Shown in pieces: positions 2,675 to 50,863 of a stretch of DNA of 59,552 nt. The position numbers were made by a program, and so were the translations under genes. Position 1 is the stretch's first letter. Every line of letters starts with the position of its first letter. Location: the NCBI GenBank assembly GCA_036559405.1, contig DATBTF010000092.1, positions 1-59,552 on the forward strand. Reading direction: 5' to 3'. The notes beneath the pieces are model-generated. The model did not search any database, had not been told where the DNA came from, and saw only the letters and a list, made by a program, of their open reading frames with translations. Origin of the DNA: Bdellovibrionota bacterium. GTDB taxonomy: Bacteria > Bdellovibrionota > UBA1018 > CAIPTA01.

Positions 2675-3838
2675 TCACACGTACAAACCCTTCTTGATCT
2701 TCTCAAGAATGATCTTCTCCATCATCAGCTTGTCTTTGGGGTCCACGGAAAAGAGCGACTGCTGCTCGCAGCGGATCTTCTCCTTCATCAGCCAGCGGAG
2801 AATATCAGAGAGGCCTTTGTTCTTTTTATCGAGAAAGAAGGGATCGCCCTCGAGAGCATCTTTCGCCTTCTTCAGCGCGCGCGCTTCGGCCGGGTCATTT
2901 TCTTTTACTTTGTAGTAAGGCAGGTCGTATTTCTTCACGTCATCCGGCAGCACGCCGAGAAAACGCACAGAAGGAGCCGAGAAATGCTGGTTCCGGATCA
3001 GCGAGGCCGCTGAGCCCGCCTTCAAAGTACGGAAAATATTTTGCATCGTATAGGCGTCAAGATCGCCGAAGAAGTAGATTGGAATGTCGAGCTCTTCCTG
3101 GATCAGCTTACACCAGCCACGCACGCCGTTCGAAGGAACGCCTTGGGCACCGATCAGAATCGAATTATTGCGCTTGGTAAAACCGTTGCTCTGGAGAGTG
3201 TTCGCCGTGCCTTCGGATTCCACCACCAGAGCGAAATCGATCTTCTTCTTCGCCTTGAGCCTGAGCGACTGCGGCTTGTTCTTGGGCTGATAAGGCGCGG
3301 TTCCCAAGGTAGAGAGATCCACCGTCGCCTTGGTGCCGTCAGCCATGGTTTCCGTTACTACAAGCTGCTGGGAATAGGTTTGCCCGCCGCGGTCGTTGGC
3401 GAAGCAGTTGAGCTCCTCGCGATACACCTGAAGCATATCGCCGATAAAATCGATAATGGAGTCGCTCTCGTCCTGGTCTTCGAAGTCCAGAGGCTTGGTG
3501 CGCGGGTTCTTTTTGATGAGACCTTTACATATGTAATAGATCTCCCTTTTTGTGTTCACACTCTGGCTGGCCAGGTTATTGAGCAGGATCTCGAGGATGA
3601 ATACCACGCGAGCGAGCTTCTGCACCGAGCTTACGTTCAGCTCTGTTCGCACTACCTTATCGCCGGGAGTGAGATAGCCCACGCGCGGATTGTAAATAGC
3701 GTTATCGAGCGAGGCCTTCACCGCCTCGAGCACCGGCCGCTTGCTCTTCTCGAGGTCGGAAAGCATCCTGTCCGCGAGGATGCGCGCTTCTTTGGGAATA
3801 TCGATCTTAAGGTCGCGGATCGTAATCATCTTGGACAT
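2675..3838 (-). CDS. top6A: DNA topoisomerase VI subunit A (Spo11/Top6A family)
   Basis: 387 aa. KREIYY block (catalytic Tyr region of the 5Y-CAP domain). Toprim block IPIYFFGDLDAYTMQNIFRTLKAGS. Starts 9 nt after the top6B stop. Confidence 0.9.
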   Translation of the reverse strand: MSKMITIRDLKIDIPKEARILADRMLSDLEKSKRPVLEAVKASLDNAIYNPRVGYLTPGDKVVRTELNVSSVQKLARVVFILEILLNNLASQSVNTKREIYYICKGLIKKNPRTKPLDFEDQDESDSIIDFIGDMLQVYREELNCFANDRGGQTYSQQLVVTETMADGTKATVDLSTLGTAPYQPKNKPQSLRLKAKKKIDFALVVESEGTANTLQSNGFTKRNNSILIGAQGVPSNGVRGWCKLIQEELDIPIYFFGDLDAYTMQNIFRTLKAGSAASLIRNQHFSAPSVRFLGVLPDDVKKYDLPYYKVKENDPAEARALKKAKDALEGDPFFLDKKNKGLSDILRWLMKEKIRCEQQSLFSVDPKDKLMMEKIILEKIKKGLYV

Positions 3839-3847
3839 AATGTGTTC

Positions 3848-5650
3848 CTATTTCGACTTCGACGAAGATTTTTTGCCCGAGCTTTTCGCCTTTTTCTTGG
3901 CGGCCACTACCCCTGCTTTCGCGCCTGGAAAGAGTTCGGCCTGCTCCCCTGGCTTGAGCTTGGGAGCCTCGGGAGCCGGTGCCTCTTCTGCGGCGGCGGG
4001 CGGAGCATCGGGATCCTCGCCTCTTTTCTTGGCTTCGCGGGCGCGCAGGTCTTTGAGCTTGGCATCGGCCTCGGCCAGCTCCTCGTGGGCGTCTTTGGAG
4101 TCGCGTCCGAGCAGCTTCATCAGCCCTTCCTCGGCCTTTTTCTTTCGGGCCTCGGAGCTCTTCGTGATGTTCACAAGGCTTTCCACCAGGATCGGGCCGA
4201 ACTGCTCGATATGTGCTAATTTTCTTTCAAGATCAGCCTCTTTCGTCTCTTTTCTGATGTGGCGGCTGAGCTTCTGGCCGGCCTGAATCAGGGCCCGGCG
4301 GATCTCCTCCACCAGCTCTTCCGACGCGTCCACGGTCTCTTTCGAGGCGTTCTTAAATTTAATGAACGGAGACACCACCGAAACGGCGAATACATAGGGC
4401 CCGATCGGCAGGCTCTCTTTGGGCTGCCCCAGGCCATAGGTTTTCCAGTTCACGCTCTCGATCGCCCAGGTGATAGCGCAGCCCGATTTATCGAACTGCA
4501 GCGGTACACGGTTGGCGAATCGCAAAAGCTGTATGGGGGCATCCGCTTCCAAATTCCTATTTTTAAACCGCGCAAGTGCCACTTCCACGGCCACAGGCTT
4601 GAAGTCGCAGATCGCGGGCTTGCGGGTGACCACGGAGAAAAAGTCGATCTCACCGAGCCGACCGATGGATTTGCTCATCGCCTCTTCGCCCACGTTGAGC
4701 ACGCTCTTGGTGGAAGGCGCCATCAGCTCGATGTCCTGCATGGCGGAAAATACTTTTTTGAACTCATCCTCTTTCAAGGAGGTGAGCGACTTATCCAGCA
4801 GGCCTTTGGTGATGCCCTTGCCTTTGAGATCCTTGATGGCCTGGTCGGAAACCCGGGAAAATCCCGTGCGCAAAAACTTCTCGAACGAAACTTTCCCGAA
4901 CAAATGCGCATGCGTGATGAATTCACCCAGTTTAAAGGTGTGAGGATGCGGCAACGTGGCCTCGGGAACGCGCGGAACTTCCTGGCTCACCCGCTCCACA
5001 TGCACCCAGTCGTTGTCGAGCAGCTTATAATGCAGGGTCATGTGCGGGTTCACCAGCACCGTGCCCTCGAGATAGGTGATCAAGCCGCCGTCGCCGTTCA
5101 GCTGGATACGTCCGTCGAGGCTGAACTCGCAGCGCACGCCGCTTTTTTTATCGTCCCAGTCGATGGTGTCTTTTTTGCGGAGCACGCCCGTATTGGATTT
5201 GATGTCCACGTCCACCTGCGCGGTCACAGCCTTGCGCATATTCGCCTTTTTGGTGGTGACGAAGGCGCCCTTAGCGTTCGTGAGCTGGGCCCAGGTAGTG
5301 GCGGCCGAGATCCCGATCCCTTGCTGGCCACGCGAACATTGCCCTTTGCCGAACTTGGAGCTGGCCAGGTATTCGCCGAATACCTTGGCGAGGTCGTCGG
5401 GGTCGATGCCGGGACCGTTGTCTTCCACGGCGATATGGATGAGCTCGGTATTCTTGGTGGAGCCCACGCCCTTGCGTTTAATTTCTACCGTAAGCTCAGG
5501 CAGGATGCCTGCGTGCTCGCAGGCGTCGAGGGAGTTGTCCACGGCCTCTTTCAGCGTGGTGAGCACCGCCTTAAGGGGGGAAGAAAAGCCCACCTGCTGG
5601 AGGTTCTTGGCAAAGTATTCGGCTGTGCTGCTTTTTGTGATCTTGCTCAT
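3848..5650 (-). CDS. top6B: DNA topoisomerase VI subunit B (GHKL ATPase) with Lys/Ala-rich C-terminal tail
   Basis: 600 aa. Bergerat-fold motifs LKEAVDNSLDA (N-box), EDNGPGI (G1), GQQGIGIS (G2), followed by a transducer-like region. The last ~95 aa are low-complexity and end AKKKAKSSGKKSSSKSK. Confidence 0.9.
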   Translation of the reverse strand: MSKITKSSTAEYFAKNLQQVGFSSPLKAVLTTLKEAVDNSLDACEHAGILPELTVEIKRKGVGSTKNTELIHIAVEDNGPGIDPDDLAKVFGEYLASSKFGKGQCSRGQQGIGISAATTWAQLTNAKGAFVTTKKANMRKAVTAQVDVDIKSNTGVLRKKDTIDWDDKKSGVRCEFSLDGRIQLNGDGGLITYLEGTVLVNPHMTLHYKLLDNDWVHVERVSQEVPRVPEATLPHPHTFKLGEFITHAHLFGKVSFEKFLRTGFSRVSDQAIKDLKGKGITKGLLDKSLTSLKEDEFKKVFSAMQDIELMAPSTKSVLNVGEEAMSKSIGRLGEIDFFSVVTRKPAICDFKPVAVEVALARFKNRNLEADAPIQLLRFANRVPLQFDKSGCAITWAIESVNWKTYGLGQPKESLPIGPYVFAVSVVSPFIKFKNASKETVDASEELVEEIRRALIQAGQKLSRHIRKETKEADLERKLAHIEQFGPILVESLVNITKSSEARKKKAEEGLMKLLGRDSKDAHEELAEADAKLKDLRAREAKKRGEDPDAPPAAAEEAPAPEAPKLKPGEQAELFPGAKAGVVAAKKKAKSSGKKSSSKSK

Positions 5651-5897
5651 TCAACCAGCGCCTTGGAACGGGCGCTCCCCTCAACACAATAGGACCAACG
5701 CAGAAAACACAGGCCCCCCTGCGCCGCTTCCGACACATAGCGAAAAAATCCGAGCACGGGAACCTCATTAAAATATGGGGAGAAGGGAGGCGTTTTCGCA
5801 AGGGAAATTGTCAAACGAGCCCGGAAGTGGGTGAAAAGGAGGAAAACAGCGCAGAGCAGAAATAGAAAAGCCGCGTGAGCGGAGCAAAATGAATAAC

Positions 5898-5932
5898 CAA
5901 AAAAAAGAGCGCTGGGCGAAACCCAGCGCTCT
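5898..5932 (-). terminator. Rho-independent terminator downstream of 5963-6388
   Basis: Minus strand reads AGAGCGCTGGG-TTTCG-CCCAGCGCTCT followed by a T8 run (11-bp stem, 5-nt loop). Confidence 0.65.
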
Positions 5933-5962
5933 TCGAAATACCCATCATGGGCAGATCAATCG

Positions 5963-6388
5963 TTAATCTTCGTCGGTCTCCACCTTCACCGTGATGATTT
6001 GGGTCTCGCAGACCATCGCCCCGCGAACGTTGACGGCAACGTTCTGCTCGCCATCCTTCAACTTCGCCTTAATGCATTTCAGATAGGTGCGGTTATCCAG
6101 GTGCGCCGCATTCGCCATATAAGGTGAGATGCCGTAGGCGCCATAGGGCTGGTAGTACATCGGGCCATACATCGGCCCCCCCCAGTACATGGGCCGCCAG
6201 CCCACCCCGTACCAAGGCATAAAGCCCGTCGGACCCACTATGTAAGGAGTGGCAGGCGCTACGATCACCTTTTTAGTCACCACCGTACCCGTTACCACGA
6301 CCTCGTCAGAAAACGCCGTAGCCGAAGCCAGCAGAGCTGAGGCTCCGAATGCCAGGCCCACGGGCCATAGTCTTTTTGGGAATTTCAT
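5963..6388 (-). CDS. Secreted hypothetical protein (Gly/Pro/Tyr/Met-rich middle)
   Basis: Signal peptide MKFPKRLWPVGLAFGASALLASATAFS. ATG at 6388 sits after GGTGGAG; the ORF-track start at 6397 is a GTG three codons upstream. Own terminator. No family recognised. Confidence 0.6.
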   Translation of the reverse strand: MKFPKRLWPVGLAFGASALLASATAFSDEVVVTGTVVTKKVIVAPATPYIVGPTGFMPWYGVGWRPMYWGGPMYGPMYYQPYGAYGISPYMANAAHLDNRTYLKCIKAKLKDGEQNVAVNVRGAMVCETQIITVKVETDED

Positions 6389-6575
6389 ATTCTCCACCCC
6401 TATCCGTCTTCTTATTTTATCAGGGGAACAGAGCGCTTTCAGCTGTCTCTTCGCGGAGTCAGGGTGCCCTCAATTTCCCGTTGTTTTTTGGCGAAGAACT
6501 TTTGGACAGTTTCCGCCCCTGAACCCCCGGAGCTTCTATGAGAAATCTTGTTTATGCCGCGCTGGGCGTCACAGC

Positions 6576-6604
6576 TTGAGTTCTTCGTTTTAGTCTTCTA
6601 GACT
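6576..6604 (+). promoter_or_regulatory. Sigma70-like promoter candidate for the histone-fold gene (TTGAGT-17 nt-TAGACT)
   Basis: -35 TTGAGT at 6576-6581, 17-nt spacer, -10 TAGACT at 6599-6604, about 50 nt upstream of the ATG at 6658, which has GGAG 7 nt upstream. Motif match only. Confidence 0.35.
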
Positions 6605-6657
6605 AGCCGAAAGTAAAAAACAGCGCCCTTACCGGTGCACTTTCTATTGGAGAACTC

Positions 6658-6852
6658 ATGGCTAAGAAGAAAATGGAAGCTCTCGTGATCGCCAGCAAAG
6701 CAAAACAAATACTGAAAAAAGCGGGCTGCAACACCGCGGGTGACGCCTTCGACGGCCTCAATGGCGTAATCTACTGGTATCTCGAGTCGGCTGCTAAGCG
6801 CGCCAAGGCGAACGGCCGCAAAACCGTGCGCTCCCACGACTTCTGCGTCTAA
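6658..6852 (+). CDS. Bacterial histone-fold protein (singlet histone, HMf/Bd0055-like)
   Basis: 64 aa: MAKKKMEALVIASKAKQILKKAGCNTAGDAFDGLNGVIYWYLESAAKRAKANGRKTVRSHDFCV. The C-terminal AKRAKANGRKTVRSHDF matches the loop2/alpha3 signature ..AKHAGRKTIKAEDI.. of archaeal HMf-type histones. Length and helix pattern fit one histone fold. Monocistronic, with its own promoter candidate and terminator. Confidence 0.75.
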   Translation: MAKKKMEALVIASKAKQILKKAGCNTAGDAFDGLNGVIYWYLESAAKRAKANGRKTVRSHDFCV

Positions 6853-6870
6853 GCAAAGTCTCTGGAAACA

Positions 6871-6898
6871 AAAAAGCCTCCCGCCCGGGAGGCTTTTT
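6871..6898. terminator. Bidirectional rho-independent terminator between the histone gene and the J-protein gene
   Basis: AAAAAA-GCCTCCC-GCCC-GGGAGGC-TTTTT: A-run upstream and T-run downstream, between convergent genes. Confidence 0.65.
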
Positions 6899-6903
6899 GC
6901 TTT

Positions 6904-7737
6904 TCAGGAAGCCTTCTTTTCCCGAATCGACCTCACCGCATTCTCCAGTTCCGCGGAGATCACCTCCGGCAGCACGATCAGCAGCTTCACCAGCAGATCG
7001 CCCCTCGCCCCGCCCTTGGCGTGAATGCCCTTGCCGTTCACGCGCAATCGCCGGCCGCTATTGGAGTGGCGCGGGATGCGCAGCTGCACCTGCCCTTCCG
7101 GCGTGGGCACCGCGAGCTCACCCCCGAGCACGGCAGTTTCCAGCGGAACAGCCAGCTCGTGCACGAGCGTGGAGCCCTCCAAGGTGAAGCGTTCATCCGG
7201 CGCGAGAAAGAGCTCCACATACACATCTCCAGGCGCGCCTCCGCCCAGGCCCGGGCCGCCCTGTCCTTGAAAGCGCAGCTTTTGCCCCGGCGCAACGCCC
7301 CTGGGAATGCGCACATGCAGGCGTTTGCCCGAAGGAAGGCGGATCTCACGCTCGCCACCCAGAATGGATTCTCTCAGGCTCATCTCCATCTGGTACACCT
7401 CATCCACTCCGGGCATGTGGAAGCCGCCCGCACGCCCGCGCCGGCGTCCGCCGAAAAGTCCTGAGAAAAAATCCTCATCGAATTCATACTGCGGCTGGGC
7501 ACGGGGCCCGGCCCCGGCCTCGTCCATTCCCCACTCACCCTTGTCGAACTTCGCGCGGTTTTCGGGAGTGCCCACGATCTCGTAGGCCTGGTTGATATCT
7601 TTGAAGCGGTGCTCAGCCTGCTTGTTTCCCGGGTTGCGATCCGGATGGAATTTTTTCGCCAGCTTGCGGTAGGCGTTCTTGATCTCGTCCTGCGAGGCAG
7701 TACGGGAGACACCCAGCTGCTGATACGGGTCCAGCAT
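6904..7737 (-). CDS. DnaJ-class II / CbpA-like J-domain co-chaperone (no zinc finger)
   Basis: J domain DPYQQLGVSRTASQDEIKNAYRKLAKKFHPDRNPG (HPD). Gly/Phe/Arg linker. DnaJ C-terminal beta domains (GAPGDVYVEL, LRVNGKGI). No CxxCxGxG repeats. ATG at 7737 is preferred to the ORF-track start at 7857, which would overlap ftsH. Confidence 0.85.
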   Translation of the reverse strand: MLDPYQQLGVSRTASQDEIKNAYRKLAKKFHPDRNPGNKQAEHRFKDINQAYEIVGTPENRAKFDKGEWGMDEAGAGPRAQPQYEFDEDFFSGLFGGRRRGRAGGFHMPGVDEVYQMEMSLRESILGGEREIRLPSGKRLHVRIPRGVAPGQKLRFQGQGGPGLGGGAPGDVYVELFLAPDERFTLEGSTLVHELAVPLETAVLGGELAVPTPEGQVQLRIPRHSNSGRRLRVNGKGIHAKGGARGDLLVKLLIVLPEVISAELENAVRSIREKKAS

Positions 7738-25500: not shown

Positions 25501-26916
25501 ATGAAACACCCCTTCCTCCTTCCGATCACTCTCCTTCTCCTCGCCGCCTGCTCGAGCCAACCGGCCTTGAACCGCAAGGTAGCCTTCGTTTCGAAGCACG
25601 CCACTGAAGCCAAACTCACCTTTGAATTCGAAGCGCATATGGTGAAGGAATCCAAGCCCACGATGGCCGAGGCCAAAGCGCAGGTGGAAAGCCAAGTGCA
25701 GCATATGTTCGGCCCGATGGAGAGAGCGAAAGTCTCTGCGGCCCCGAAAGAAGATCATGTGGTATCGATCCGCTCGGGCGATATCGAGCCGGTGGAAGAC
25801 GAGGCTGGCACCTGGCGGATTCCGTACAAATACGAAGGCACGATTGTGATCGAAAAAGGCCCGCGCACAAAATACGATTTCCCGCTCCCCGTTGACCCCA
25901 CCGCGATCTTCACCAACGCCCAAGGCAACAGCTCGCATAATCCCTGCACCGACGAGCACTACCAAAGCGAGGGCGACTTCTGGTACTTCTGGAGTCCGGC
26001 CGGATGGGGCAACAACGAATATCCCAGCTGCAAGCTGCGTTCGAACAAGAACGGCATCATCCAGCCGGGCGAAGACTATGAGATCGTGAGCGCCCGGATC
26101 GACCGTTTCCCCAGCGAGCGCGCCACCTATCCTGAATACGACCGCCTCGCCGACGACAACGTGATCGACGTGGTATTTTTCTACGGCAAAGACGAGCCGA
26201 CCGGCAGCAACGATCCCTACAGGTCCAGTGACATAAGCGCCGGCCTGTACCGCGACACAGTGAACATCCTCAAAGCGACCGGCGGTGACGCCATGGAGTT
26301 CCAGGTGCGCAAGTGGAGCAAGGCGGAGATCGAAGCCATTTATCCCCCCGACCAGCGTGACGCTAACGTTTTCGTGGAAGAGGCAGTGAAAACCTACATT
26401 ACCGGCCTCAAGCTGCGAGTGCGCCTCTTCTTCGGAAACATCGGCATCGACCAAAAGAGCACGGGCTTTCACTACTTCTTCCGCGACGCCCTGAAAAACT
26501 CCTCTGTGATGGTGTACAACGGGCATAGCGGCCTCGGCGGCAACCTGGATCTTTCCGAGATCGCGGCGAGCCACAGCTTCCGGCTCACTCCCAACAAGAA
26601 CCGCTACCAGATCTACTTCTTCAACAGCTGCACCTCGTATACCTACTACAATACGATGTACTTCAACCGGAAACGCACCAAGAGTGCCCGCCGGCTCACC
26701 GATCCCAAGGGAACGAAGAACCTCGACATCCTGGCGAACGGGCTTTCCACGGCCTTCAACGTGATGCACGACACGGACATGGCGCTGCTGAAGGCGATCG
26801 ACAAATACATGGCACGCGGCACCTGGACCAGCTACCAAAAGCTGGCGCGTGACATTGACTCCGACAACCTCTTTACCGTGAACGGGGACGAAGACAACCC
26901 GACCAAGCCACGTTAG
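25501..26916 (+). CDS. Lipoprotein, possible clan-CD (caspase/gingipain-like) cysteine peptidase
   Basis: Lipobox LLLAAC in MKHPFLLPITLLLLAACSS. A His-Gly block after a hydrophobic strand (VMVYNGHSGLGG) and a Cys after a hydrophobic strand (QIYFFNSCTSY) fit the clan-CD His/Cys dyad pattern. Function tentative. Confidence 0.45.
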   Translation: MKHPFLLPITLLLLAACSSQPALNRKVAFVSKHATEAKLTFEFEAHMVKESKPTMAEAKAQVESQVQHMFGPMERAKVSAAPKEDHVVSIRSGDIEPVEDEAGTWRIPYKYEGTIVIEKGPRTKYDFPLPVDPTAIFTNAQGNSSHNPCTDEHYQSEGDFWYFWSPAGWGNNEYPSCKLRSNKNGIIQPGEDYEIVSARIDRFPSERATYPEYDRLADDNVIDVVFFYGKDEPTGSNDPYRSSDISAGLYRDTVNILKATGGDAMEFQVRKWSKAEIEAIYPPDQRDANVFVEEAVKTYITGLKLRVRLFFGNIGIDQKSTGFHYFFRDALKNSSVMVYNGHSGLGGNLDLSEIAASHSFRLTPNKNRYQIYFFNSCTSYTYYNTMYFNRKRTKSARRLTDPKGTKNLDILANGLSTAFNVMHDTDMALLKAIDKYMARGTWTSYQKLARDIDSDNLFTVNGDEDNPTKPR

Positions 26917-28538: not shown

Positions 28539-29240
28539 ATGAACTACCAATCGCGCATTTCGCTTTTTGTATTAAGCGGGATTCTCGCCCTTGGCGTAAG
28601 CGCCAGAGCGGAAGGCGAAAAGAAACATCCGTCTAATGGTGGTGGCTTCTTTGGTGGTGGCAATGCTGAAGCCAAGAAAAAAGAGGAGCCAAAGGCGGAG
28701 GCGGGCGTGGCCGTGGGTGAGCCGAATCCTGGCGCTCCGAAAGCCGAAGAAAAGCGCGAAGAGCATGCAAAGGGAGAAACGCATGCTAAGGGCGGTGTGC
28801 ATGGCAAGGGCCATCACGGTCACCATCACCTGCCCTTCCAGTTCAACCACCGCATTGAGATGATGGAGAAGTTCCTCGAACGCCGCCATGCCAAAGGAAA
28901 GATAAGCGACGAGGCCTATAGCGCCGCAAAGGCGAAGATAGAGGCCATGAAAGCGAAGTACGCCGCGAAAGCAGCCAGCGTGAAGTCGGTGGGCGAACTC
29001 AATAAAGAGATCAATGTGGTGAAGATGGAAGTCGCCGAGCATGCTGCCGGGGGGGCACAGAATATCGTCGTGGGTGACGAGCGCCCGGCGGCCGCGAACC
29101 CGGAAGAGAAGCCTCTGGTGGATCCCTCTACTGCCATCAACAAGCCCGTGGATCGCCCTGTCGTGGTCACGCTTCCGGCCGTGACGGGCGCTCCGAAAAC
29201 GGCGGAGGATGGCCCGCCCACAACCTCTCCGGCCTTCTAA
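28539..29240 (+). CDS. Secreted Lys/Glu/Ala-rich protein with a His cluster (GKGHHGHHH)
   Basis: Signal peptide MNYQSRISLFVLSGILALGVSARA. Charged low-complexity stretch, His-rich patch, Ala/Lys helical segment, Pro-rich tail. No family recognised. Confidence 0.6.
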   Translation: MNYQSRISLFVLSGILALGVSARAEGEKKHPSNGGGFFGGGNAEAKKKEEPKAEAGVAVGEPNPGAPKAEEKREEHAKGETHAKGGVHGKGHHGHHHLPFQFNHRIEMMEKFLERRHAKGKISDEAYSAAKAKIEAMKAKYAAKAASVKSVGELNKEINVVKMEVAEHAAGGAQNIVVGDERPAAANPEEKPLVDPSTAINKPVDRPVVVTLPAVTGAPKTAEDGPPTTSPAF

Positions 29241-29252
29241 CGGCCGGAGAGG
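29224..29252 (+). terminator. 11-bp-stem hairpin spanning the stop codon of 28539-29240 (CCTCTCCGGCC-TTCTAAC-GGCCGGAGAGG)
   Basis: Perfect stem read directly. No T-tract follows, so terminator or attenuator function is uncertain. Confidence 0.35.
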
Positions 29253-29368
29253 TGTTGGCATAGAGGTCTTTCCGTTAAGTATTTGAAAGTAATGTGGATT
29301 TTATCAGCGATGGACCCATGCCGGACTGAAGAAATCGGGTTAAATCGCCGATAAGAATCCGGGGGAGT

Positions 29369-30847
29369 ATGAGGCTCATTTTCGTAACTGGAATTCTTTT
29401 GGGACTGCTGGTTTGCGTTCTGCAAAGCCAGGCGGGTTCGAATGTTCGTGTTGTGACAAACGGCAAGCCGACCCCTGCGCCTGCGCCCTTCCCCACGCCC
29501 AATACCACCTTCACAAGCGCTACCTTCCAAGGCAGCCCTAACGATAGAAGCGGCACTAGCAATACCTCCTACAGCAGTAAGCGAGCTTCGGCCCAGCGTA
29601 CGATAGATGCACAGAGCCTCCAGCAGCTGAAGGACACGCTCAGTGGCAAATCCTGGTCCGCTCCCGCTCCTTCCCCTGCTCCCAAATCCGTAGAGGCTCC
29701 CAAAGCCGCGGCGGCGCCAAAACCGGCGCCCGCTCCTGCATCCGCTCCCCAAGCAGCAGAGGCTCCCAAAGCGGCCCCGGCCGCCGCTGCCGCGGAAGAG
29801 AGAGAAGAGAAGCAGGCGGAACGTAACCTCCCTTCCACAGCCTCACAAGCCGCCCGCGAAGCCACGGGCCGGGAAATCAGCACGAGCTCGCTTTCTCCCA
29901 ATTCGGAATCTACCCGGCAGATAAACACTGAATCCGTGGCGGAACGCGTGGCCCGCCTCGACCGCGATGGTTCCGACAACTTCCACAAAGGCGCGATGGG
30001 CGTGGCCAAAGGGATTACCAAACTCTCGGAGGCCGGCCAGGAGCAAGCCGCCAGCGGTGGCGCCAATCTGGAGGTCGCCGCCGTTCACGATGACGCCATC
30101 AAGCAGATCAGCGAAGGCAGCCAGCAACTCGAAGCCGGCCGCGCCGCCGTGACCAAGGCGAACGAGATCAAAGCCCAGCAGAACAACCTGGCCAGCATTG
30201 GTGTAGGAACAACCTTCAAAGCCAACAATCTGAAGTTTGATGCCGCCAAGGCCTCAGGTGAAACCAAAAGCGCGCTGGACGATCTGGAAAAGATCGCGGG
30301 GGTTTCGGCTTCCGCCTTGGCAGAGGCCGTGAACCAAGGGGGCAGCGACGCCATCGCGGAGCTCGCCACTACGGCGAAAGATGTCACGGATACCAAGGAA
30401 GAAGTGGTGGCGAAAATGTCGGACTTCCCTGTCTCCGGCGGCCTCTTCGCCTCTTCCGCCGCGCCTTCTCGCATCGTGGGGAGCGAGTCGTCCTTCAAAC
30501 CGCAGTGGATCGAAACTCCGAGAGGCGCAACGGCGGTAATCAAAGCAACGGAAAATCGCGCTCCGGCTTCCACGGGAGGATTGCCGGTTCCGGAGCAGGC
30601 CGGGGTGCGGGCCCCGCCGGTTTGGGCGAAGGCCAACGGGCTCGACTCCTACAATGGCAGCTTGCAGCCGCTCGTGCGTGAACAGCTTTTCGAAACGCTC
30701 GATGAGAAAAACAAAGCCAGCCGTGACGAGGCCGGAGAGACAATCGATACGCTCTTCCGCCGCGTGAAAAGGCAATATACGAAACGCCATGAGGAGATGG
30801 CCGACGCCGAAGCGCGGCCGGCGCCACTGGGAACTGGCGCTCAGTGA
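29369..30847 (+). CDS. Secreted Pro/Ala-rich protein, tandem paralog A (unknown family)
   Basis: Signal peptide MRLIFVTGILLGLLVCVLQSQA. P/A-rich spacer. The conserved core and C-terminal motif are shared with the next two genes. SD GGGGGAG. Confidence 0.75.
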   Translation: MRLIFVTGILLGLLVCVLQSQAGSNVRVVTNGKPTPAPAPFPTPNTTFTSATFQGSPNDRSGTSNTSYSSKRASAQRTIDAQSLQQLKDTLSGKSWSAPAPSPAPKSVEAPKAAAAPKPAPAPASAPQAAEAPKAAPAAAAAEEREEKQAERNLPSTASQAAREATGREISTSSLSPNSESTRQINTESVAERVARLDRDGSDNFHKGAMGVAKGITKLSEAGQEQAASGGANLEVAAVHDDAIKQISEGSQQLEAGRAAVTKANEIKAQQNNLASIGVGTTFKANNLKFDAAKASGETKSALDDLEKIAGVSASALAEAVNQGGSDAIAELATTAKDVTDTKEEVVAKMSDFPVSGGLFASSAAPSRIVGSESSFKPQWIETPRGATAVIKATENRAPASTGGLPVPEQAGVRAPPVWAKANGLDSYNGSLQPLVREQLFETLDEKNKASRDEAGETIDTLFRRVKRQYTKRHEEMADAEARPAPLGTGAQ

Positions 30848-30866
30848 AGAAAGGCAGAGGTGGCAA

Positions 30867-32333
30867 ATGCGGATCCTGAATTTTAGATTGGTAGCTGCGT
30901 CGCTGGCGCTTTTGCTGTGCGGGAACGCGGCCTTTGCGGGATCATTCCCCGGTACCACTCCCACGACCGACTTCCGAGGCCTACCTAACAATCCTGCACC
31001 GGCCCCGACCCCGGCTACTGTGTACCCGGGCACGGCGACCATCAATCCCGCGGACCCCTTGGCCGCCCAGCAACTTTTGAATCTGCTGAATGGCACCGGT
31101 CAGACAGCGGTGACTACACCAATTGGTATTCCGATCACCACCAGCGCACCCGGTCAGGTTCCGAATTGGACTTTTTTGCCGGCCACGGCACCCGCTCCGA
31201 CCGCCTCTACACCGGTTTTCAATCCTGTAACAGCTCTTGGCTCATTCCTCCCGGTGCCTGTGCCGGGTTCAGGCAATGGTACTGCCCCCACGCCGGCACC
31301 AGCTTCGAATCCCACCTCCACGGTAGCCGAAGAACGGGCTGTATCCAGGAATGTGTCAGAGATGGGTGAATCTCGTGTCACGGAAACAGCCGCCGTGCAG
31401 GCCTCGCGCCTCGATACCGAAGGCACGAAAAACTTTTACGGAGGCGTAGTGGATGTGGCCAGAGGCATCACCAAGCTTTCGCGCGCGGAACAGGGAGAAG
31501 AAACAGAGGAGGAGGGCATGGCCGACCTTGCATCTGTCCGGCCTTCCGCGGCCACCCCTGTTCTTCCTTCCTCCGCTGGGGCGCCAACGTCCGGTCCCGT
31601 ATTGGATGCCGTACGCACTCTGGGAAACGGTGTGCGCCGGCTCGAAACTGGGCGCGCCACCGTGGACCACGCCAATGAAATCATCCGCCGGGAAGCCAGC
31701 GCTGCCAGTATGGGCACCGACTCCGGTCTGAAAACGCACGAACTGGCCTTCGATCGTGAAAAACTGAACGAGAGTGACAACCAGGTGCTCAACCAGATGG
31801 AGGAAACCGCGGGAGTGCCCGTTTCCGCCCTCGTAAATGCCGTGAACAAGGGAGCCAGCGGCTGGGATCTCTACGAGCTGGCGTCTTCGGCCAAAGGAGT
31901 GAATCTTTCCACTGCTGATATCGCAGCCAATGTCCCGGCCGTGCCTTCCAGTCCCTTGCTCGCGAAGCCCCTCTCCCCGACGCAGTCCGGGGTTGATGGC
32001 ATGGACGCGGGAGCCAAGTCGGTACTCGGAAGTGTGACGCCTGCGCAGGCGCAAAAGGCCGACAAACGCGACATGGCTTCCACTTTGAACAAGGCTTCGA
32101 CCCTGCCCGCCGACAACCGGAACGCCGCACCCGCCTGGGCAAGGGCCGGGCTCGATTCGAACAACGGCAGCCTCGCCCCGATCCCGCGGGACCAGCTGTT
32201 CGCCTCTTTCGATTCACAGGGAAGCCGCGATGGAAGTGGCGAGCCGATCGACTCGCTCTTCTCGCGCGTGCGCAAACAATTAGCCAAGCGCCAAGAGGAA
32301 CTGGGCACTTCAGAGGCGCGGAACGCCCGCTAG
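30867..32333 (+). CDS. Secreted Pro/Ala-rich protein, tandem paralog B (unknown family)
   Basis: ATG at 30867 gives signal peptide MRILNFRLVAASLALLLCGNAAFA (the ORF-track start at 30789 overlaps paralog A). Same architecture as A and C. Confidence 0.75.
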   Translation: MRILNFRLVAASLALLLCGNAAFAGSFPGTTPTTDFRGLPNNPAPAPTPATVYPGTATINPADPLAAQQLLNLLNGTGQTAVTTPIGIPITTSAPGQVPNWTFLPATAPAPTASTPVFNPVTALGSFLPVPVPGSGNGTAPTPAPASNPTSTVAEERAVSRNVSEMGESRVTETAAVQASRLDTEGTKNFYGGVVDVARGITKLSRAEQGEETEEEGMADLASVRPSAATPVLPSSAGAPTSGPVLDAVRTLGNGVRRLETGRATVDHANEIIRREASAASMGTDSGLKTHELAFDREKLNESDNQVLNQMEETAGVPVSALVNAVNKGASGWDLYELASSAKGVNLSTADIAANVPAVPSSPLLAKPLSPTQSGVDGMDAGAKSVLGSVTPAQAQKADKRDMASTLNKASTLPADNRNAAPAWARAGLDSNNGSLAPIPRDQLFASFDSQGSRDGSGEPIDSLFSRVRKQLAKRQEELGTSEARNAR

Positions 32334-32346
32334 GTTTTGGGGGAGT

Positions 32347-33810
32347 ATGAGATTTTTGTCGCTCGCAACCTGCACCTTGGCCATCCTTTGGATGGAAGGC
32401 GCCTTCGCGGGCACTACGGCGCCTAAGACTGCCCCTGCCCCTGCGCCTGTCCCGACAAGCGGCATATTGGGAGGCGGCCAGACCGGTGGACTGGGGACCA
32501 GCAGCACCAATAGTCCTTTCGGCAATATTAGTCCGACGCCCCTACCAACGCCTACTACCGCTCCGGCCCCGCGTCCCGCGCCACGCCCGGATCCCAAACC
32601 CAGGCCCAAGCCGAGTCCGGCGCCGGCGCCGGTGCCTCCATTAGTTTCGGCTCCCACAAGGCCGCCTGTTTCTCCCAGCCCCACAACGCCTTCGCCTGGG
32701 AATACACCCACCACGGGCTCGCCTTCGATCACTCCGTCGGCCGGTCCTGCGCCCGGCCCAGGCCCATCCCCCTCCGTGGGCACCAACGACCAATCGGGTG
32801 AGAGCGTAACTCATCCGCCTTCCCCAGTGGCCAATCCCTTTCCCACTCCTTCGCCCAACGCGATGAATTCGGAACGCGCTGATCGACCGGAAGGCGATAC
32901 TACGGCGCTACCCGAAACCTTCGTTCCCACCACCGGCATCAACGCCGCCCAAGCCGCGGCGGAGCTGGGCAACGAAGGCTCCTCTGCCTTTCACCAGGGT
33001 GTGCTCGAGCTGGCCGCCGGGATTACGCGTCTTTCCCGGGCCGACCAGACCCATGTTCCCGAGATGCATAGCGAGGCGATCCAATATCTTGGCTCCGGCA
33101 ACCAGAATGTCGAAGCCGGCCGCGTGGCCGTGGACCAGGCGAACGAGATCATCAGCGCGGAAAACCGGATCGCCAGCGTGGGCGTCGATACGGGACTCGA
33201 AACCCACGAACTCACCTTCGACGCCAGAAACCTCACGGAAGAAGGCCGCAGCACTCTCGAGCAGATGGAGACCCAGGCCGGAGTTCCCGTTTCGAGCCTC
33301 GTGAGCGCTGTGAACAACGGAGGAAGGATCGACAGCTTCGTGGAACTCGCCACCAGCGCCAAGGGGGTGACGACCACCAAGGAGCAGATCCTGTCGGAAA
33401 TGTCAGACCTGCCGCCGCCGGTGCCCTCCAAGCTCTTCGCTTTGCTCGCGCAGTTCGGAAAAGCGCCGGGGACGCTTTTCGGCAACAAGCTTCAGGATCC
33501 GGCCAAGCTGCCGGCTGACGCGAAGATCATCCCCCTGAAGTTCGAAGACCACCGCAGGCCGGCGCTGGCCGCCCTCGCCGCCGCGAACGGCGCCAAAGGC
33601 AACAGCTTGCGGAACGGCCCTCCGGAATGGGTGAAAGCCGGCGGCAAGCTGCAGCCTCTCGGAAGCGAACAGTTTTTCGGCTCGATCGGCGCGGCCCAGG
33701 CCAGCCGCGATGAATTCGGTGACGCTTCGGAAACTCTTTTTACCCGCGTGCGCCGCCAGCATGCCAAGCGCCAGGATGAGCTGCGTAGCAAGTCCGTCGG
33801 CGCACACTAG
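32347..33810 (+). CDS. Secreted Pro-rich protein, tandem paralog C (unknown family)
   Basis: Signal peptide MRFLSLATCTLAILWMEGAFA. Very Pro-rich ~160-aa spacer. Conserved core and C-terminal motif. Initiation region GGGGGAGTATGAG is identical to paralog A. Confidence 0.75.
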   Translation: MRFLSLATCTLAILWMEGAFAGTTAPKTAPAPAPVPTSGILGGGQTGGLGTSSTNSPFGNISPTPLPTPTTAPAPRPAPRPDPKPRPKPSPAPAPVPPLVSAPTRPPVSPSPTTPSPGNTPTTGSPSITPSAGPAPGPGPSPSVGTNDQSGESVTHPPSPVANPFPTPSPNAMNSERADRPEGDTTALPETFVPTTGINAAQAAAELGNEGSSAFHQGVLELAAGITRLSRADQTHVPEMHSEAIQYLGSGNQNVEAGRVAVDQANEIISAENRIASVGVDTGLETHELTFDARNLTEEGRSTLEQMETQAGVPVSSLVSAVNNGGRIDSFVELATSAKGVTTTKEQILSEMSDLPPPVPSKLFALLAQFGKAPGTLFGNKLQDPAKLPADAKIIPLKFEDHRRPALAALAAANGAKGNSLRNGPPEWVKAGGKLQPLGSEQFFGSIGAAQASRDEFGDASETLFTRVRRQHAKRQDELRSKSVGAH

Positions 33811-34233
33811 TCAGACGTCCCAGCTCCCTTTCGAACGGCTGCGTTTCTTATCTCCGTGTTGGCGCTTCTTCTCTTTCCTGCGCTCCTTCGCAGCCCGGCT
33901 CGGCTTGGTTTTCTTCCGCGGCTTGGGCGGATGCAATACCGACAATAAAATCGCGCGCAGTTTTTCCAGGCAATCTTCCTGGTTGCGCAGGCGATCGCGA
34001 AACCGGTCACTGACGATCAGCAGCTCGCCTTCCACGGTAAGCTGCGAGCCATAGCGCTGTAGAAAACGTTCGCGCATACCCGCGGGCAAGGTCATATTGC
34101 GCGCAAAATCCCAGCGCAGAAGCGCCTTGGAGTTCACCTTATTGACGTTCTGCCCTCCGGGACCGCCGCTCCGGGCGAAGGAAAACTGCAGCTCCGCGCT
34201 GGGGATCACAACCTCGGGAGTCAGAAGGAGCAA
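33811..34233 (-). CDS. arfB: Alternative ribosome-rescue factor ArfB (peptidyl-tRNA hydrolase, GGQ)
   Basis: 140 aa. GGPGGQNVNKVNSKA GGQ block. Basic C-terminal tail KKTKPSRAAKERRKEKKRQHGDKKRSRSKG. Confidence 0.9.
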   Translation of the reverse strand: MLLLTPEVVIPSAELQFSFARSGGPGGQNVNKVNSKALLRWDFARNMTLPAGMRERFLQRYGSQLTVEGELLIVSDRFRDRLRNQEDCLEKLRAILLSVLHPPKPRKKTKPSRAAKERRKEKKRQHGDKKRSRSKGSWDV

Positions 34234-42345: not shown

Positions 42346-42466
42346 GCATTCAGGTTAACGGCTTATGCCACGCTTGGCCAACTATTCCGCCGCAGCGTCA
42401 AGCTGGGCACAACGCTTCCGGGAGTGGAATGATACGTTCGTCCAGAAAACTCCTGGAGGAAATCCC

Positions 42467-43696
42467 ATGCGACACATCAAGCTTGCTCCCCTGCTAGCTC
42501 TCGTTCTCGGCTTTCCCCTGTTTTACGCCAATGGAGACGATTCTCCCGGCCGCTGCTACCGCTTCACCAGCAGCAACCTGCCCAATATGGAGAAGAAGGT
42601 TTCCCCACGCATCGAGCGCTGGTGCTACCAGAAAATCTCGAGCGGTCTTTACGTTTACAACGTCGACGGCGAAAAGGTGAAACCGGAGCTCGCATTCGTG
42701 AAAGCCACCAACGGAGTGTTGACCCACGGGTCTCTACACGCCGGCAAGCTCACCATGCACAGCCTGCGCTACGATCAGTTCAACCCCTTTCCCGTGCCGC
42801 TCGACGAGCCGACCAACACGAGCTACGAAGATCCTCCGTCGAAGCCCGACTTTGTTGACGGCGCCAAAAAAGTTCTGGCCTACCTTCTGCTCGCCCAGAG
42901 CCCGAATCCTGTTACCCTAGCCATCAACGAAGGCGTGATAAAGGCCGAAAGCTCCGAGCAGCCCTGGCGCGGCTACTGGTGGCCGAACAAGGGACAGCCG
43001 ATGGTGGGGCCGATGTCCAAGTATGACTCCTATGTGTCCGCCCGTGGCGTCAGCGGTGGCGCGGCCAGCTGGGAATCCGGGCATCATCTGAGCCATGGCA
43101 TCTGGTGGGAAGGCCACTGCAACGGCTGGGCCGCGGCAGCCATTCTGCGCGCCGAGCCCACCACTCCCGTTCTCGATTCCCAGTCCGGGGTCACCTTCAG
43201 TGTCAGCGACCTGAAAGGCATCTTCACCGAGGCCGACTACTGCGCCAATGCCTCGATGTTCGGCCACCGCTACGACGGCCGGGGCGACGATCTCTACGAC
43301 ATCGATGCAGCCCTCTTCCATCGCACCCTCACCTACTATATCGGGAACCTCCACAAACCCGTGGCCATGGACTACCGGCGCGACGAAGTGATCGACAACC
43401 ACATCGTCTCCGGCTATTCGATGGAAATCGAAGAGAACAGCCCTACCGTGGTGACGGTGACTGCAACTCTTAACGTGCACAAATACGACGGATCGCGGAT
43501 CGAGGAACCAGGCGTCGCTCCGATCTACACCCGTGTATACCGCTATACGCTCACGCGGGACAGCGACGGGCTGATTACCGGAGGCAAGTGGCTGAGTGAA
43601 AACCCGGACTTCCTCTGGGTGCCCCTGAGCACGGGACGCTGCCGCTCGGGCAACCCGAATCTCGACGAGAGCATGATCAGCGGGATCCTGCGCTGA
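42467..43696 (+). CDS. Secreted hypothetical protein, possible papain/calpain/transglutaminase-fold enzyme
   Basis: ATG at 42467 (GGAGGA SD) gives signal peptide MRHIKLAPLLALVLGFPLFYANG. Cys block WEGHCNGWAAAAIL (compare the C-W-x-x-A of clan CA). His block IDNHIVSGYSME. Function tentative. Confidence 0.5.
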   Translation: MRHIKLAPLLALVLGFPLFYANGDDSPGRCYRFTSSNLPNMEKKVSPRIERWCYQKISSGLYVYNVDGEKVKPELAFVKATNGVLTHGSLHAGKLTMHSLRYDQFNPFPVPLDEPTNTSYEDPPSKPDFVDGAKKVLAYLLLAQSPNPVTLAINEGVIKAESSEQPWRGYWWPNKGQPMVGPMSKYDSYVSARGVSGGAASWESGHHLSHGIWWEGHCNGWAAAAILRAEPTTPVLDSQSGVTFSVSDLKGIFTEADYCANASMFGHRYDGRGDDLYDIDAALFHRTLTYYIGNLHKPVAMDYRRDEVIDNHIVSGYSMEIEENSPTVVTVTATLNVHKYDGSRIEEPGVAPIYTRVYRYTLTRDSDGLITGGKWLSENPDFLWVPLSTGRCRSGNPNLDESMISGILR

Positions 43697-49021: not shown

Positions 49022-50863
49022 TTGGCCGATCAAAAATATAGGTATCGAAGCTTGAACACACCCCCTCAGGCCTTTCCCCGGGCCGCCCTAGTTTTGGTTC
49101 TCCTCCTCTCACCCCTCCCTTCGGGTGCCCATGACGGCATCGACTGTGAGAAGGTCAACCAGGATCTCTTAAGAGAACTCCACACCCTGCGCACCGGAAC
49201 CGGAGAACCTCTCCACCGCTGCCAGCTGAACCTGGCCGCCCCGGCCAATGGCGGTGTCTGCGAGCACACCTATACCGATATCAACCAGCAGCTCGACAAA
49301 ATCGACGCCAAGGCCGAAGAAGCCTGCAACCTGATCCGCCAGGCACGCGACCAGAAAAGCGAGTGCGAGAACGGGCAAACGGCCTGCTTCCAGGCAGCCG
49401 CCCCGAAGTTCCAGGAGGCCTCCGCCAAGCTCAGCGACGCCGCAAGCCTGGTCAGCCAGGCCAAGTTCAGCGTGGAGATCCGCCGGGACGAAAACCGCGC
49501 CGTTGCGAAACACTATGGGGAATTCCTCAGACGGGCCGGGAAGCAAAAAGCCCTGGAACCCGCGTTAAGACAGACGAACCCTTCGGAGGATCCTTGGGCG
49601 CAGCTGGATCCTTTCTCCCGCAAACTTTTCAACACCGACCCCCAGTCGGCTCTTCGGGCCAACAAGCTCGAAAACAGCAGCGGTGAAGAAGTGGCCGCCA
49701 ATAAAGAACGAATCCGCAGCTTCATTGAAAACGGAGGCACGGAAGCGTCGCTAAGCACCATCGCCCTGCTTCCCCAGGAGCAGCTGCGGGCCGAGCTGCA
49801 TGCCCGCAACTTCATCGCCGCCGCAGGCTTGGCTGCCGATGAGCTTCTCGTCCGGGCGGGGCGCCTGGATAAAGTCTCCAAAAGAATGATTGTGGCAGGC
49901 GAGAAGCTCGCGCCCCCGGCCGTTACGGAAAAGAAATCCACGTCCTATACCGTGAACGTAGACACAAACGTTGCGCCGCCCGCCAGGAACAGCGATATCC
50001 ACCTTGCCCTGAACACCCTTCTGGCCCCGGCCCAAGCGCTTGCGCAGGCCACTCTCGATCCGAAAAAAGGGGCCGTGCTCGCCCTCGCCGGAGGCGCCCT
50101 CATGGCGGCTCGTCGAGGGTCCAACATCACCCTCGACCGTGACTATGGTGCTCCCGTAAAAATGGCTGTCGCGAACGGCGACCGTCAGCTGATGAGAGTG
50201 ACAGACAAAGAACTGGCCGCCGATCCCTCTTCCTATCCGGCCTCCTCCCCCGCCTCCCCGGCCCGGGCTTCCGCGGCCCAGGAGGCAGCCAAGGCGGCGG
50301 CCCAAGACCCAGCTAAGCCTGTGGTGGCAAGCCCGGTAGGCGATACGGCCGCCGCGCGCGCACCCGCCTCCAAAGAAGAATCCGAGCGCCATCCGGCCGT
50401 AGAGAATCGCCCTCCCGTGATCTCGCCCGAATCCCTTGCCGCGCCCCTGGAATACACCCTAGGCGCCTCTCGTGAGCCCGCCAAAAAAGAAGAGAAGAAA
50501 AACGAACCCGCCAAGACAGGCCCCCGCGAAGCCCTCAGTGCCTACAATTCCGGTGCCGGCTCGGGCGACCTTTTCGCTGCAACCGCCCGGGACCGCCTGC
50601 GCGAAATGCTCCGGCGCCGCACGGCGGGCGAGAAAAGCAATGCCGGCGACGAGGACAATGCCGGACAGCAAACCGTGGCCGATGTTCTGCAAAACACGAG
50701 TGCGGCCCCCCTTTCAGCGTTTTCCGGCGAGGGAGAAATGCTTCAGGAAAGCTTTCAGAGCGACGGCGATTTCACCCCCCTCTTCCGCCGTGTACATAGC
50801 GCCCACCGGCGCTTTCACCATTGGCTGGAAAATGACCGCTGGCCAGGGCGGCCTGACCTATAA
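49022..50863 (+). CDS. Secreted Ala/Pro/Glu-rich hypothetical protein (start uncertain)
   Basis: Hydrophobic AALVLVLLLSPLPSGAHD near the N-terminus. TTG starts are possible at 49022 or 49052; no SD seen. C-terminal DFTPLFRRVHSAHRRF resembles the C-terminal motif of the 29369-33810 paralogs. Confidence 0.5.
   Translation: MADQKYRYRSLNTPPQAFPRAALVLVLLLSPLPSGAHDGIDCEKVNQDLLRELHTLRTGTGEPLHRCQLNLAAPANGGVCEHTYTDINQQLDKIDAKAEEACNLIRQARDQKSECENGQTACFQAAAPKFQEASAKLSDAASLVSQAKFSVEIRRDENRAVAKHYGEFLRRAGKQKALEPALRQTNPSEDPWAQLDPFSRKLFNTDPQSALRANKLENSSGEEVAANKERIRSFIENGGTEASLSTIALLPQEQLRAELHARNFIAAAGLAADELLVRAGRLDKVSKRMIVAGEKLAPPAVTEKKSTSYTVNVDTNVAPPARNSDIHLALNTLLAPAQALAQATLDPKKGAVLALAGGALMAARRGSNITLDRDYGAPVKMAVANGDRQLMRVTDKELAADPSSYPASSPASPARASAAQEAAKAAAQDPAKPVVASPVGDTAAARAPASKEESERHPAVENRPPVISPESLAAPLEYTLGASREPAKKEEKKNEPAKTGPREALSAYNSGAGSGDLFAATARDRLREMLRRRTAGEKSNAGDEDNAGQQTVADVLQNTSAAPLSAFSGEGEMLQESFQSDGDFTPLFRRVHSAHRRFHHWLENDRWPGRPDL

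Follow-up and report, generated by a model that had tools for sequence, protein, structure and literature searches.

A rare, previously undescribed family of putatively exported helical proteins encoded by a tandem gene triplet in Bdellovibrionota

Three tandem genes, here called A, B and C, lie on contig DATBTF010000092.1 of a Bdellovibrionota bacterium (assembly GCA_036559405.1); the whole contig of 59,552 nucleotides was analyzed and is referred to as the window. Their products belong to a previously undescribed and very rare protein family, found only in metagenome-assembled genomes (MAGs) of Bdellovibrionota or Oligoflexia and in metagenome contigs. The novelty lies in the assignment of protein family and fold. 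In overall design, a Sec-exported modular envelope protein with helical and disordered parts, the family is of a known kind, and the evidence shows no new mechanism or system. We tentatively suggest that A, B and C are scaffolds or tethers of the envelope or cell surface that would dock through a conserved C-terminal helix to a specific partner.

Results

Gene triplet and protein layout

The three paralogous genes are on the same strand, encode proteins of about 490 amino acids (aa) and are separated by spacers of 19 and 13 nucleotides (nt), in agreement with an original prediction that had been made from the DNA letters and their open reading frames (ORFs). The genes and their parts are located in the window as follows.

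29369-30847, plus strand: paralogue A, 492 aa; NCBI HEY8279287.1, VIH99_06675, annotated "hypothetical protein". Signal peptide aa 1-23; Pro/Ala/Ser/Thr linker to about aa 190; helical core aa 191-351; disordered aa 357-452; C-terminal helix aa 462-482
29939-30421, plus strand: core of A, from the AlphaFold2 model and the invariant alignment columns
30749-30814, plus strand: C-terminal basic helix ("tag") of A, TLFRRVKRQYTKRHEEM..., helix 273-293 of the model
30848-30866, plus strand: A-B spacer, 19 nt, containing the Shine-Dalgarno-like AGAGGTGG
30867-32333, plus strand: paralogue B, 488 aa; core from 31389, tag SLFSRVRKQLAKR at 32253
32334-32346, plus strand: B-C spacer, 13 nt, carrying the first 8 bases of the 13-mer GGGGGAGTATGAG
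32347-33810, plus strand: paralogue C, 487 aa; core from 32944, tag TLFTRVRRQHAKR at 33733

The start of B was taken as the ATG at 30867, which lies behind AGAGGTGG and opens a canonical signal peptide; a longer ORF from 30789 would overlap A. The 13-mer GGGGGAGTATGAG occurs identically at 29361-29373 and 32339-32351, where it precedes and overlaps the start codons of A and C, and it corresponds to the shared initiation region that the original prediction had pointed out. The stop codon of C abuts that of a convergent arfB-like gene (33811-34233, minus strand).

The three proteins have the predicted series of a Sec signal, a Pro/Ala/Thr-rich spacer and three aligned blocks. Read by eye, all three proteins start with a short basic n-region, followed by a hydrophobic h-region and a cleavage site of the AxA type (SQA/GS, AFA/GS and AFA/GT), which indicates Sec export and cleavage by signal peptidase I. 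Lipoprotein status was rejected, because the Cys that A, B and C have in common is part of the h-region, has no lipobox around it and is missing in most homologues. The Pro/Ala/Thr/Ser linkers that follow (aa 26 to about 175-199) are 150-175 aa long, consist of 60-72% Pro, Ala, Thr, Ser and Gly, and cannot be aligned with one another. Alignment begins at about residue 175-200 and continues through the core to the C-terminus, with pairwise identities of 37-42%. Imperfect DNA repeats within the linker of A (29660-29781) encode units of the type AP(x)PxxAPKxxEAPKAAA, which suggests that this linker grows or shrinks by slippage.

Homologues and distribution

An exhaustive HMMER profile search with the three cores against 1.84 billion (1.84e9) representative proteins returned 20 matches. 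Three were fragments of A-C from a Joint Genome Institute (JGI) metagenome, two were giant repeat proteins, and 15 were non-self members of 262-441 aa with E values of 3e-44 to 5e-05. The giant proteins (P0014, 2972 aa; P0017, 2646 aa) were excluded as repeat adhesin-like or lipoprotein-like sequences whose scores were summed over 13-14 stretches. Those of the 15 members whose N-terminus is complete have the same order of parts: signal peptide, low-complexity linker, blocks 1 and 2, disordered stretch and C-terminal motif. Seven alignment columns are invariant in 18/18 sequences (G19, A24, G26, G61, L114, E118 and F274 in A-core numbering). Members differ in composition and GC content (P0015, for example, is rich in Lys and Asn). 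Since the blocks are kept in homologues of different composition while the linkers do not align, their conservation is not compositional, and the possibility raised with the original prediction that composition alone produced the blocks does not apply.

Every named member is annotated as hypothetical and stems from a Bdellovibrionota or Oligoflexia MAG; the remaining members are from metagenome contigs. One protein, P0011, is labelled "X-X-X-Leu-X-X-Gly heptad repeat protein" by JGI. The MAG that carries the triplet has a fourth, divergent paralogue on another contig (VIH99_13135, P0034), which is located between a sigma-54 activator and a GGDEF gene.

The original prediction could not place the core in any family, and neither could profile searches. 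Pfam, NCBIfam, PHROGs and PDB sequences gave no family assignment for any of the 18 members, and profiles built from the whole family, from the core and from the small domain retrieved only low-complexity or insignificant matches from PDB. Word-index searches with the A core, the 18-sequence core profile and the small-domain profile returned self fragments plus one member, or nothing; they missed the family because low-complexity words swamp the candidate list. A scan of GTDB species representatives with A-C patterns yielded no confirmed locus, and as these patterns cover only part of the family, absence from GTDB is unproven. With a degenerate DNA pattern for the C-terminal helix, GTDB gave 13 matches, 12 of them chance-like and one a contig-end fragment in a MAG binned as Planctomycetales. 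The same pattern in JGI metagenomes recovered a known member (locus L030), two contig-end fragments and chance matches. A family-type C-terminus (...GDPNESLFHRVQGQYAKRRPLF...) was also seen on a 2.2-kb metagenome contig (L041, 330-488, minus strand) in a 53-codon stop-to-stop ORF, which may reflect a pseudogene, a frameshift or faulty assembly. A literature search on the heptad-repeat family and on Bdellovibrio secretome motifs found nothing relevant.

Predicted structure of the core

An AlphaFold2 model was built with the 18-sequence alignment. The predicted local distance difference test (pLDDT) score is 90-98 over core residues 1-165 and below 50 for residues 168-225, and the block mean for the C-terminal helix is 71-85. 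The core of A is predicted to open with a hairpin of two helices of about 40 residues (aa 191-229 and 234-275), which carry xxx[LIV]xx[GA] heptads and invariant small residues (Gly/Ala). In the model a 20-residue loop and four short helices follow (aa 297-351 of A), and this four-helix module contains the motif LxxMExxAGVxxxxLxxAVNxGG...LAxxAKG. The stretch of about 100 residues between the core and the C-terminal helix is predicted to be disordered and holds short conserved motifs.

Foldseek searches with the confident model gave nothing significant in PDB (best E 0.56; 0.35 with an earlier model). In BFVD the best match was an uncharacterized protein with an E value of 0.039 and a template modelling (TM) score of 0.27, which is not significant. 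The match lists consist of generic helical bundles, including four-helix sensor domains of methyl-accepting chemotaxis proteins, syntaxin, ferritin, ClyA, AhlB and MakA.

The C-terminal helix

Within the family, conservation is highest in a basic C-terminal helix, [ST]LFxRVxxQYxKRxxxL. All nine positions that carry 3.2 bits of information or more (L1, F2, R4, V5, Q8, Y9, K11, R12 and L16) lie in one 180-degree arc of the helical wheel. The conserved face includes specific polar residues, and the opposite face is variable. Across the 18 members the helix has a net charge of +2 to +6, a mean hydropathy of -0.3 to -1.8 and a hydrophobic moment of 0.6-1.7 per residue. Because polar positions are conserved residue by residue on one face, specific recognition fits this helix better than non-specific membrane insertion.

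Similar C-termini occur in four proteins outside the family. The gene immediately upstream of P0012, a family member (L003, 464-1132), encodes an exported protein of 222 aa that is rich in Pro and Ala, has the C-terminal module (GSLFRQVRSAYRAR) without the helical core and matches the tail helix at E 2.5e-4 to 5e-4. A 411-aa exported protein with no Pfam domain (L020, 11075-12310) has the tail motif together with the small helical module (profile E 7e-8); at the position of helix 1 it carries two fully hydrophobic Gly-zipper helices, and it has weak holin and DUF998 matches. The adjacent gene (L020, 12314-13879) encodes a 521-aa exported, Pfam-less protein with STLFERVSLSYRRH near its C-terminus, a weaker likeness to the tail. 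The fourth protein is encoded in the window itself (49022-50863, plus strand). It is 613 aa long, lacks Pfam domains, has a signal-peptide-like N-terminus and Ala/Pro-rich stretches, and ends in TPLFRRVHSAHRRF, which resembles the family helix. Its hidden Markov model (HMM) score is weak. It may also have the upstream PLS motif.

A loose regular expression derived from the family, written before the 613-aa case was seen, was applied to the six-frame translation of the window. It matched four times, in A, B, C and the 613-aa protein, and each match is 12-19 residues before a stop (15 residues in the 613-aa protein). Shuffled sequence gave 0.17 matches per window and 1.9% of residues are in such C-terminal positions, so that about 0.003 matches would be expected by chance. 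These copies suggest that the tail helix may be a portable module.

Synteny, duplication and rate of evolution

The genes that flank the triplet are unrelated to it and have housekeeping functions: two methyltransferases, PEBP, ArfB, SUI1, a response regulator, thioredoxin and a GMC oxidoreductase. Locus L019 and a JGI contig share the order methyltransferase, PEBP, a variable gene, one family gene and convergent ArfB, followed further on by SUI1, response regulator, thioredoxin and GMC oxidoreductase. Adjacency of the family gene to ArfB is kept in L030, and adjacency to the methyltransferase is kept in L002 and L018. In L030, close to the family gene and ArfB, the gene at 5317-7722 (minus strand) has a product of 801 aa with a signal peptide and long Gln/Ala-rich regions that resemble coiled coils; the protein also contains a (PG)n run and about 19 residues of poly-Pro.

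Because syntenic relatives carry one copy, the locus was ancestrally single-copy, and the triplet is a local, lineage-specific expansion. Neighbor-joining placed A, B and C in one clade in 58% of bootstraps. Comparison of the three genes at the DNA level found no high-identity tracts, which indicates that the duplication is old and that there was no recent gene conversion. In a comparison of the window with L019, identity is 59-84% for the flanking proteins and 31-33% for the family orthologue; the genes around the family have evolved much more slowly than the family itself.

Two members of a shorter subfamily have a further gene module nearby. In L023 (6404-7923), genes for an extracytoplasmic function (ECF) sigma factor, a small putative anti-sigma factor and a DUF3106 protein are directly upstream of P0015 on the same strand, and in L003 (5726-7126) the same module is 3.5 kb downstream of P0012. 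It was not found in the window, L019, L020, L021, L024 or L030. Given the module near P0015 and P0012, the shorter subfamily may be under envelope-stress regulation.

Transcription unit and upstream gene

The gene preceding A, here called U, was also considered, together with an inverted repeat at its end.

28539-29240, plus strand: upstream neighbor U, 233 aa; signal peptide, K/E/A-rich, with an HGKGHHGHHH tract
29218-29258, plus strand: stem-loop spanning the stop codon of U, 17-nt arms, 88% complementary

The stop codon of U is in the loop of the inverted repeat, and no T-run follows. The RNA fold has a predicted energy of -36.4 kcal/mol (z = -4.8), and 0/200 shuffles were equally stable. 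This hairpin is probably a terminator or 3' stabilizer without a U-tract that marks the 3' end of the U transcript. If the hairpin ends that transcript, A-B-C would start from the 110-nt spacer that follows, and U is probably a separate transcription unit. No strong hairpin was found in the 19-nt or 13-nt spacers, and terminator-like matches there occur at background frequency; the sole match nearby on the plus strand (30897-30909) is inside B and likewise at background frequency. With no strong hairpin in either spacer, A, B and C are probably co-transcribed. A sigma-70 scan found no promoter-like site, and Rfam had no match anywhere in the window.

The sequence of U bears out the earlier description of a signal-peptide-bearing protein with a His tract. 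Profile libraries gave only sub-threshold family matches for it. In L019, the slot upstream of the family gene holds a 333-aa beta-barrel-like protein with a weak, sub-threshold OprB match, which is unrelated to U, and L002 has no gene in this slot. Conservation of the triplet together with its upstream neighbor was thus not borne out, as relatives are single-copy and the upstream gene is unrelated or missing. U was rejected as a partner of A-C, because it is not conserved in relatives and the strong hairpin separates it from A. What had been put forward as an undescribed envelope or secreted system is retained as an undescribed family of putatively exported proteins, and not as a multi-gene system that includes U.

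Other genes in the window

No secretion system, toxin or sigma factor was found in the rest of the window. A gene that shortly precedes the locus (25504-26913, plus strand) encodes a 470-aa Pfam-less predicted lipoprotein with an LLLAAC/SS lipobox. Downstream (42365-43696, plus strand), a transglutaminase-elicitor domain protein is encoded beside M28 and M14 peptidases. Topoisomerase VI is mainly archaeal and eukaryotic and is sporadic in bacteria. The window has adjacent genes for its subunits A (TP6A_N and Toprim) and B (Topo-VIb transducer and HATPase) at 2675-5650 on the minus strand.

Discussion

As judged from sequence and model, A, B and C would be exported via Sec and cleaved by signal peptidase I. 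The mature form would then have a disordered spacer of 150-175 aa, an all-helical domain of about 165 aa, a disordered stretch of about 100 aa and the basic C-terminal helix. Within the helical domain, a hairpin with about 40 residues per arm would be held together by the invariant Gly/Ala and joined to the small four-helix module, the whole sitting on long flexible linkers. The tail helix would serve for docking and would recognize, in a sequence-specific way, either a partner protein or an anionic polymer of the envelope. A possible partner is a conserved polar patch on the helical domain of the family itself, with the motifs GITxLSxAxQ and ExGRxxVxxANxI, in which case chains or meshes could form. 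The triplet arose when an ancestral single-copy locus was duplicated in tandem, and the copies then diverged strongly, as expected for exposed proteins under diversifying or relaxed selection. We regard this scaffold or tether role in the envelope or at the surface as plausible, somewhat short of probable.

Several points weigh against it. Localization rests on signal peptides read by eye. No conserved operon or partner gene was found in the nine loci examined. The model confidence of the tail helix could reflect merely a conserved isolated helix, and the sharing of the tag outside the family amounts to four proteins, two of which are weak by HMM (1.1 and 6.5 bits). A structural role is also the default reading for proteins made of helices and disordered regions and is hard to falsify in silico.

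Predators are included in this phylum, and the proteins might instead be secreted membrane-active effectors against prey or competitors, perhaps alpha-helical pore formers or membrane-perturbing proteins, with the hairpin rearranging and inserting into a target membrane and the basic tail binding anionic lipids or lipopolysaccharide. Rapid evolution of the family would suit such a role, and so would the invariant Gly/Ala of the hairpin, as in tightly packed or membrane helices. The distant Gly-zipper relative in L020, with its weak holin and DUF998 matches, points in the same direction, and the best Foldseek matches repeatedly include ClyA, AhlB, MakA and designed bundles for membrane lysis, none of them significant. 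However, Foldseek values for toxins were poor (E at least 0.35, TM at most 0.25, probability at most 0.54), and the hairpin helices of A-C are charged rather than hydrophobic, with no beta-tongue or hydrophobic head found. The neighborhood is a conserved housekeeping one in which toxin, immunity and secretion-system genes were not found. An effector function is in our view unlikely.

Anchoring of a periplasmic protein by a C-terminal amphipathic helix is an established precedent in PBP5. The tail helix could similarly be a peripheral anchor on the periplasmic face of the membrane, like those of Escherichia coli PBP5 and PBP6, instead of docking to a partner. A Sec signal combined with a cationic amphipathic C-terminal helix, with the moment and charge given above, is what such an anchor would have. 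Against this, mean helix hydropathy is negative in 18/18 members, an invariant Arg is in the middle of the apolar face, and R4, Q8, K11 and R12 are conserved like the hydrophobic positions, a constraint that lipid binding alone does not need. These features make a membrane anchor quite unlikely.

The helical hairpin of the core and the ECF sigma/anti-sigma/DUF3106 modules near P0015 and P0012 could also indicate helical proteins of the periplasm that act in envelope stress or like chaperones, comparable in function to Spy/CpxP and expressed under an ECF sigma factor. The module is lacking from the window and from the five other loci listed above, the LTXXQ and Metal_resist profiles match 0/18 members (the DUF3106 neighbor protein in L003 has a weak Metal_resist match), and long disordered linkers and rapid divergence are atypical of chaperones. 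A chaperone-like role is therefore very unlikely. That the similarity is a by-product of low complexity, or that the ORFs are not real genes, is refuted: the N-terminal halves are indeed of low complexity, and sequence of this kind flooded the word-index searches, but the conserved blocks are outside these parts and are kept in homologues of other composition and GC content, the fold is predicted with confidence, synteny is conserved, and A is annotated in GenBank.

A broader possibility extends the docking role of the scaffold or tether to other proteins. The tail helix may be a Bdellovibrionota-specific portable docking or sorting tag that takes several unrelated Sec-exported proteins to a common envelope receptor or structure, with A-C either as its most abundant clients or, if the receptor is borne on their core, as a self-assembling mesh in the periplasm or at the surface. 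We consider this speculative and distinctly unlikely. If true, it would be a new type of C-terminal localization signal without a transmembrane segment.

Most Bdellovibrionota have not been cultured, and much of their exported proteome lacks annotation. For one of their protein families, the analysis gives the limits of the domains, the invariant residues, a confident model of the core, the subfamilies and a locus that anchors synteny, and the one-sided conserved tail helix is an easy experimental handle. This sequence-specific helix, maybe common to unrelated exported proteins, is the sole feature able to raise the importance of the family. Should it be a shared localization or docking signal, it would be a new entry in the short list of bacterial C-terminal sorting signals and would aid annotation of other orphan exported proteins of the phylum. 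Otherwise, what results is a clear account of a putative envelope protein family that is confined to one lineage, diverges rapidly and is suitable for a Pfam/DUF entry.

Comparison with known systems

Helix 2 of the hairpin in A can be written as the heptads IKQISEG SQQLEAG RAAVTKA NEIKAQQ, which resemble TIGR03057 (X-X-X-Leu-X-X-Gly). By eye on the alignment, helix 2 has three to four xxx[LIV]xx[GA] heptads in which Gly is often replaced by Ala, Gln or Ser. The TIGR03057 model matched 2/18 members (best E 0.049) below its cut-off, and A-C had no match at E up to 1. Stalks of the YhgE/Pip and EsaA type are likewise extracytoplasmic helical hairpins. However, these proteins have multiple flanking transmembrane helices, whereas A-C are much smaller and their sole hydrophobic segment is the signal peptide. 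EsaA and Pip were not among the Foldseek matches of the family core.

ClyA, AhlB and MakA are exported elongated helical bundles built on a long hairpin. Compared with the pLDDT>90 core, they gave Foldseek E values of 0.6-2.4 in PDB with TM of about 0.2, which is not significant. The ClyA family has a hydrophobic head or beta-tongue, which was not found in A-C; their loop between helix 2 and the small domain is polar (IGVGTTFKANNLKFDAAK) and their hairpin helices are charged. The two long disordered regions and the basic tail helix are extra in the present family.

PEP-CTERM/exosortase, LPXTG/sortase, GlyGly-CTERM, MYXO-CTERM and the C-terminal domain of the type IX secretion system also place a short conserved C-terminal motif on Sec-exported, lineage-restricted proteins, and the tail motif is possibly common to unrelated exported proteins, as in those tags. 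Sortase-type signals need a hydrophobic transmembrane stretch and a basic tail after the motif, whereas the last 30 residues of the family are basic/acidic and helical, without a hydrophobic run. NCBIfam sorting-tag models had no match in the family, and no sortase-like partner gene was seen. The type IX domain is a beta-sandwich of about 70-100 aa; the family C-terminus is modelled as a single helix after disorder and has no Pfam or NCBIfam match. PBP5 and PBP6 share with the family a Sec signal and a C-terminal amphipathic helix on an otherwise soluble periplasmic protein, but the family helix is polar overall, is conserved residue by residue on one face and has an invariant Arg in its apolar arc.

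TonB and TolA have an N-terminal hydrophobic segment followed by a long Pro/Ala/Lys-rich spacer, to which the linkers are similar (for example, APKAAAAPKPAPAPASAPQAAEAPKAAP in A). No member had a Pfam match to TonB_C or TolA domains, and ExbBD/TolQR genes are not nearby. TonB and TolA keep an uncleaved N-terminal anchor, while the AxA sites in A-C suggest that the N-terminus is removed. A-C could be placed in none of the known groups compared here. The resemblances of the family to heptad proteins, ClyA bundles, TonB/TolA spacers and sorting tags are architectural only.

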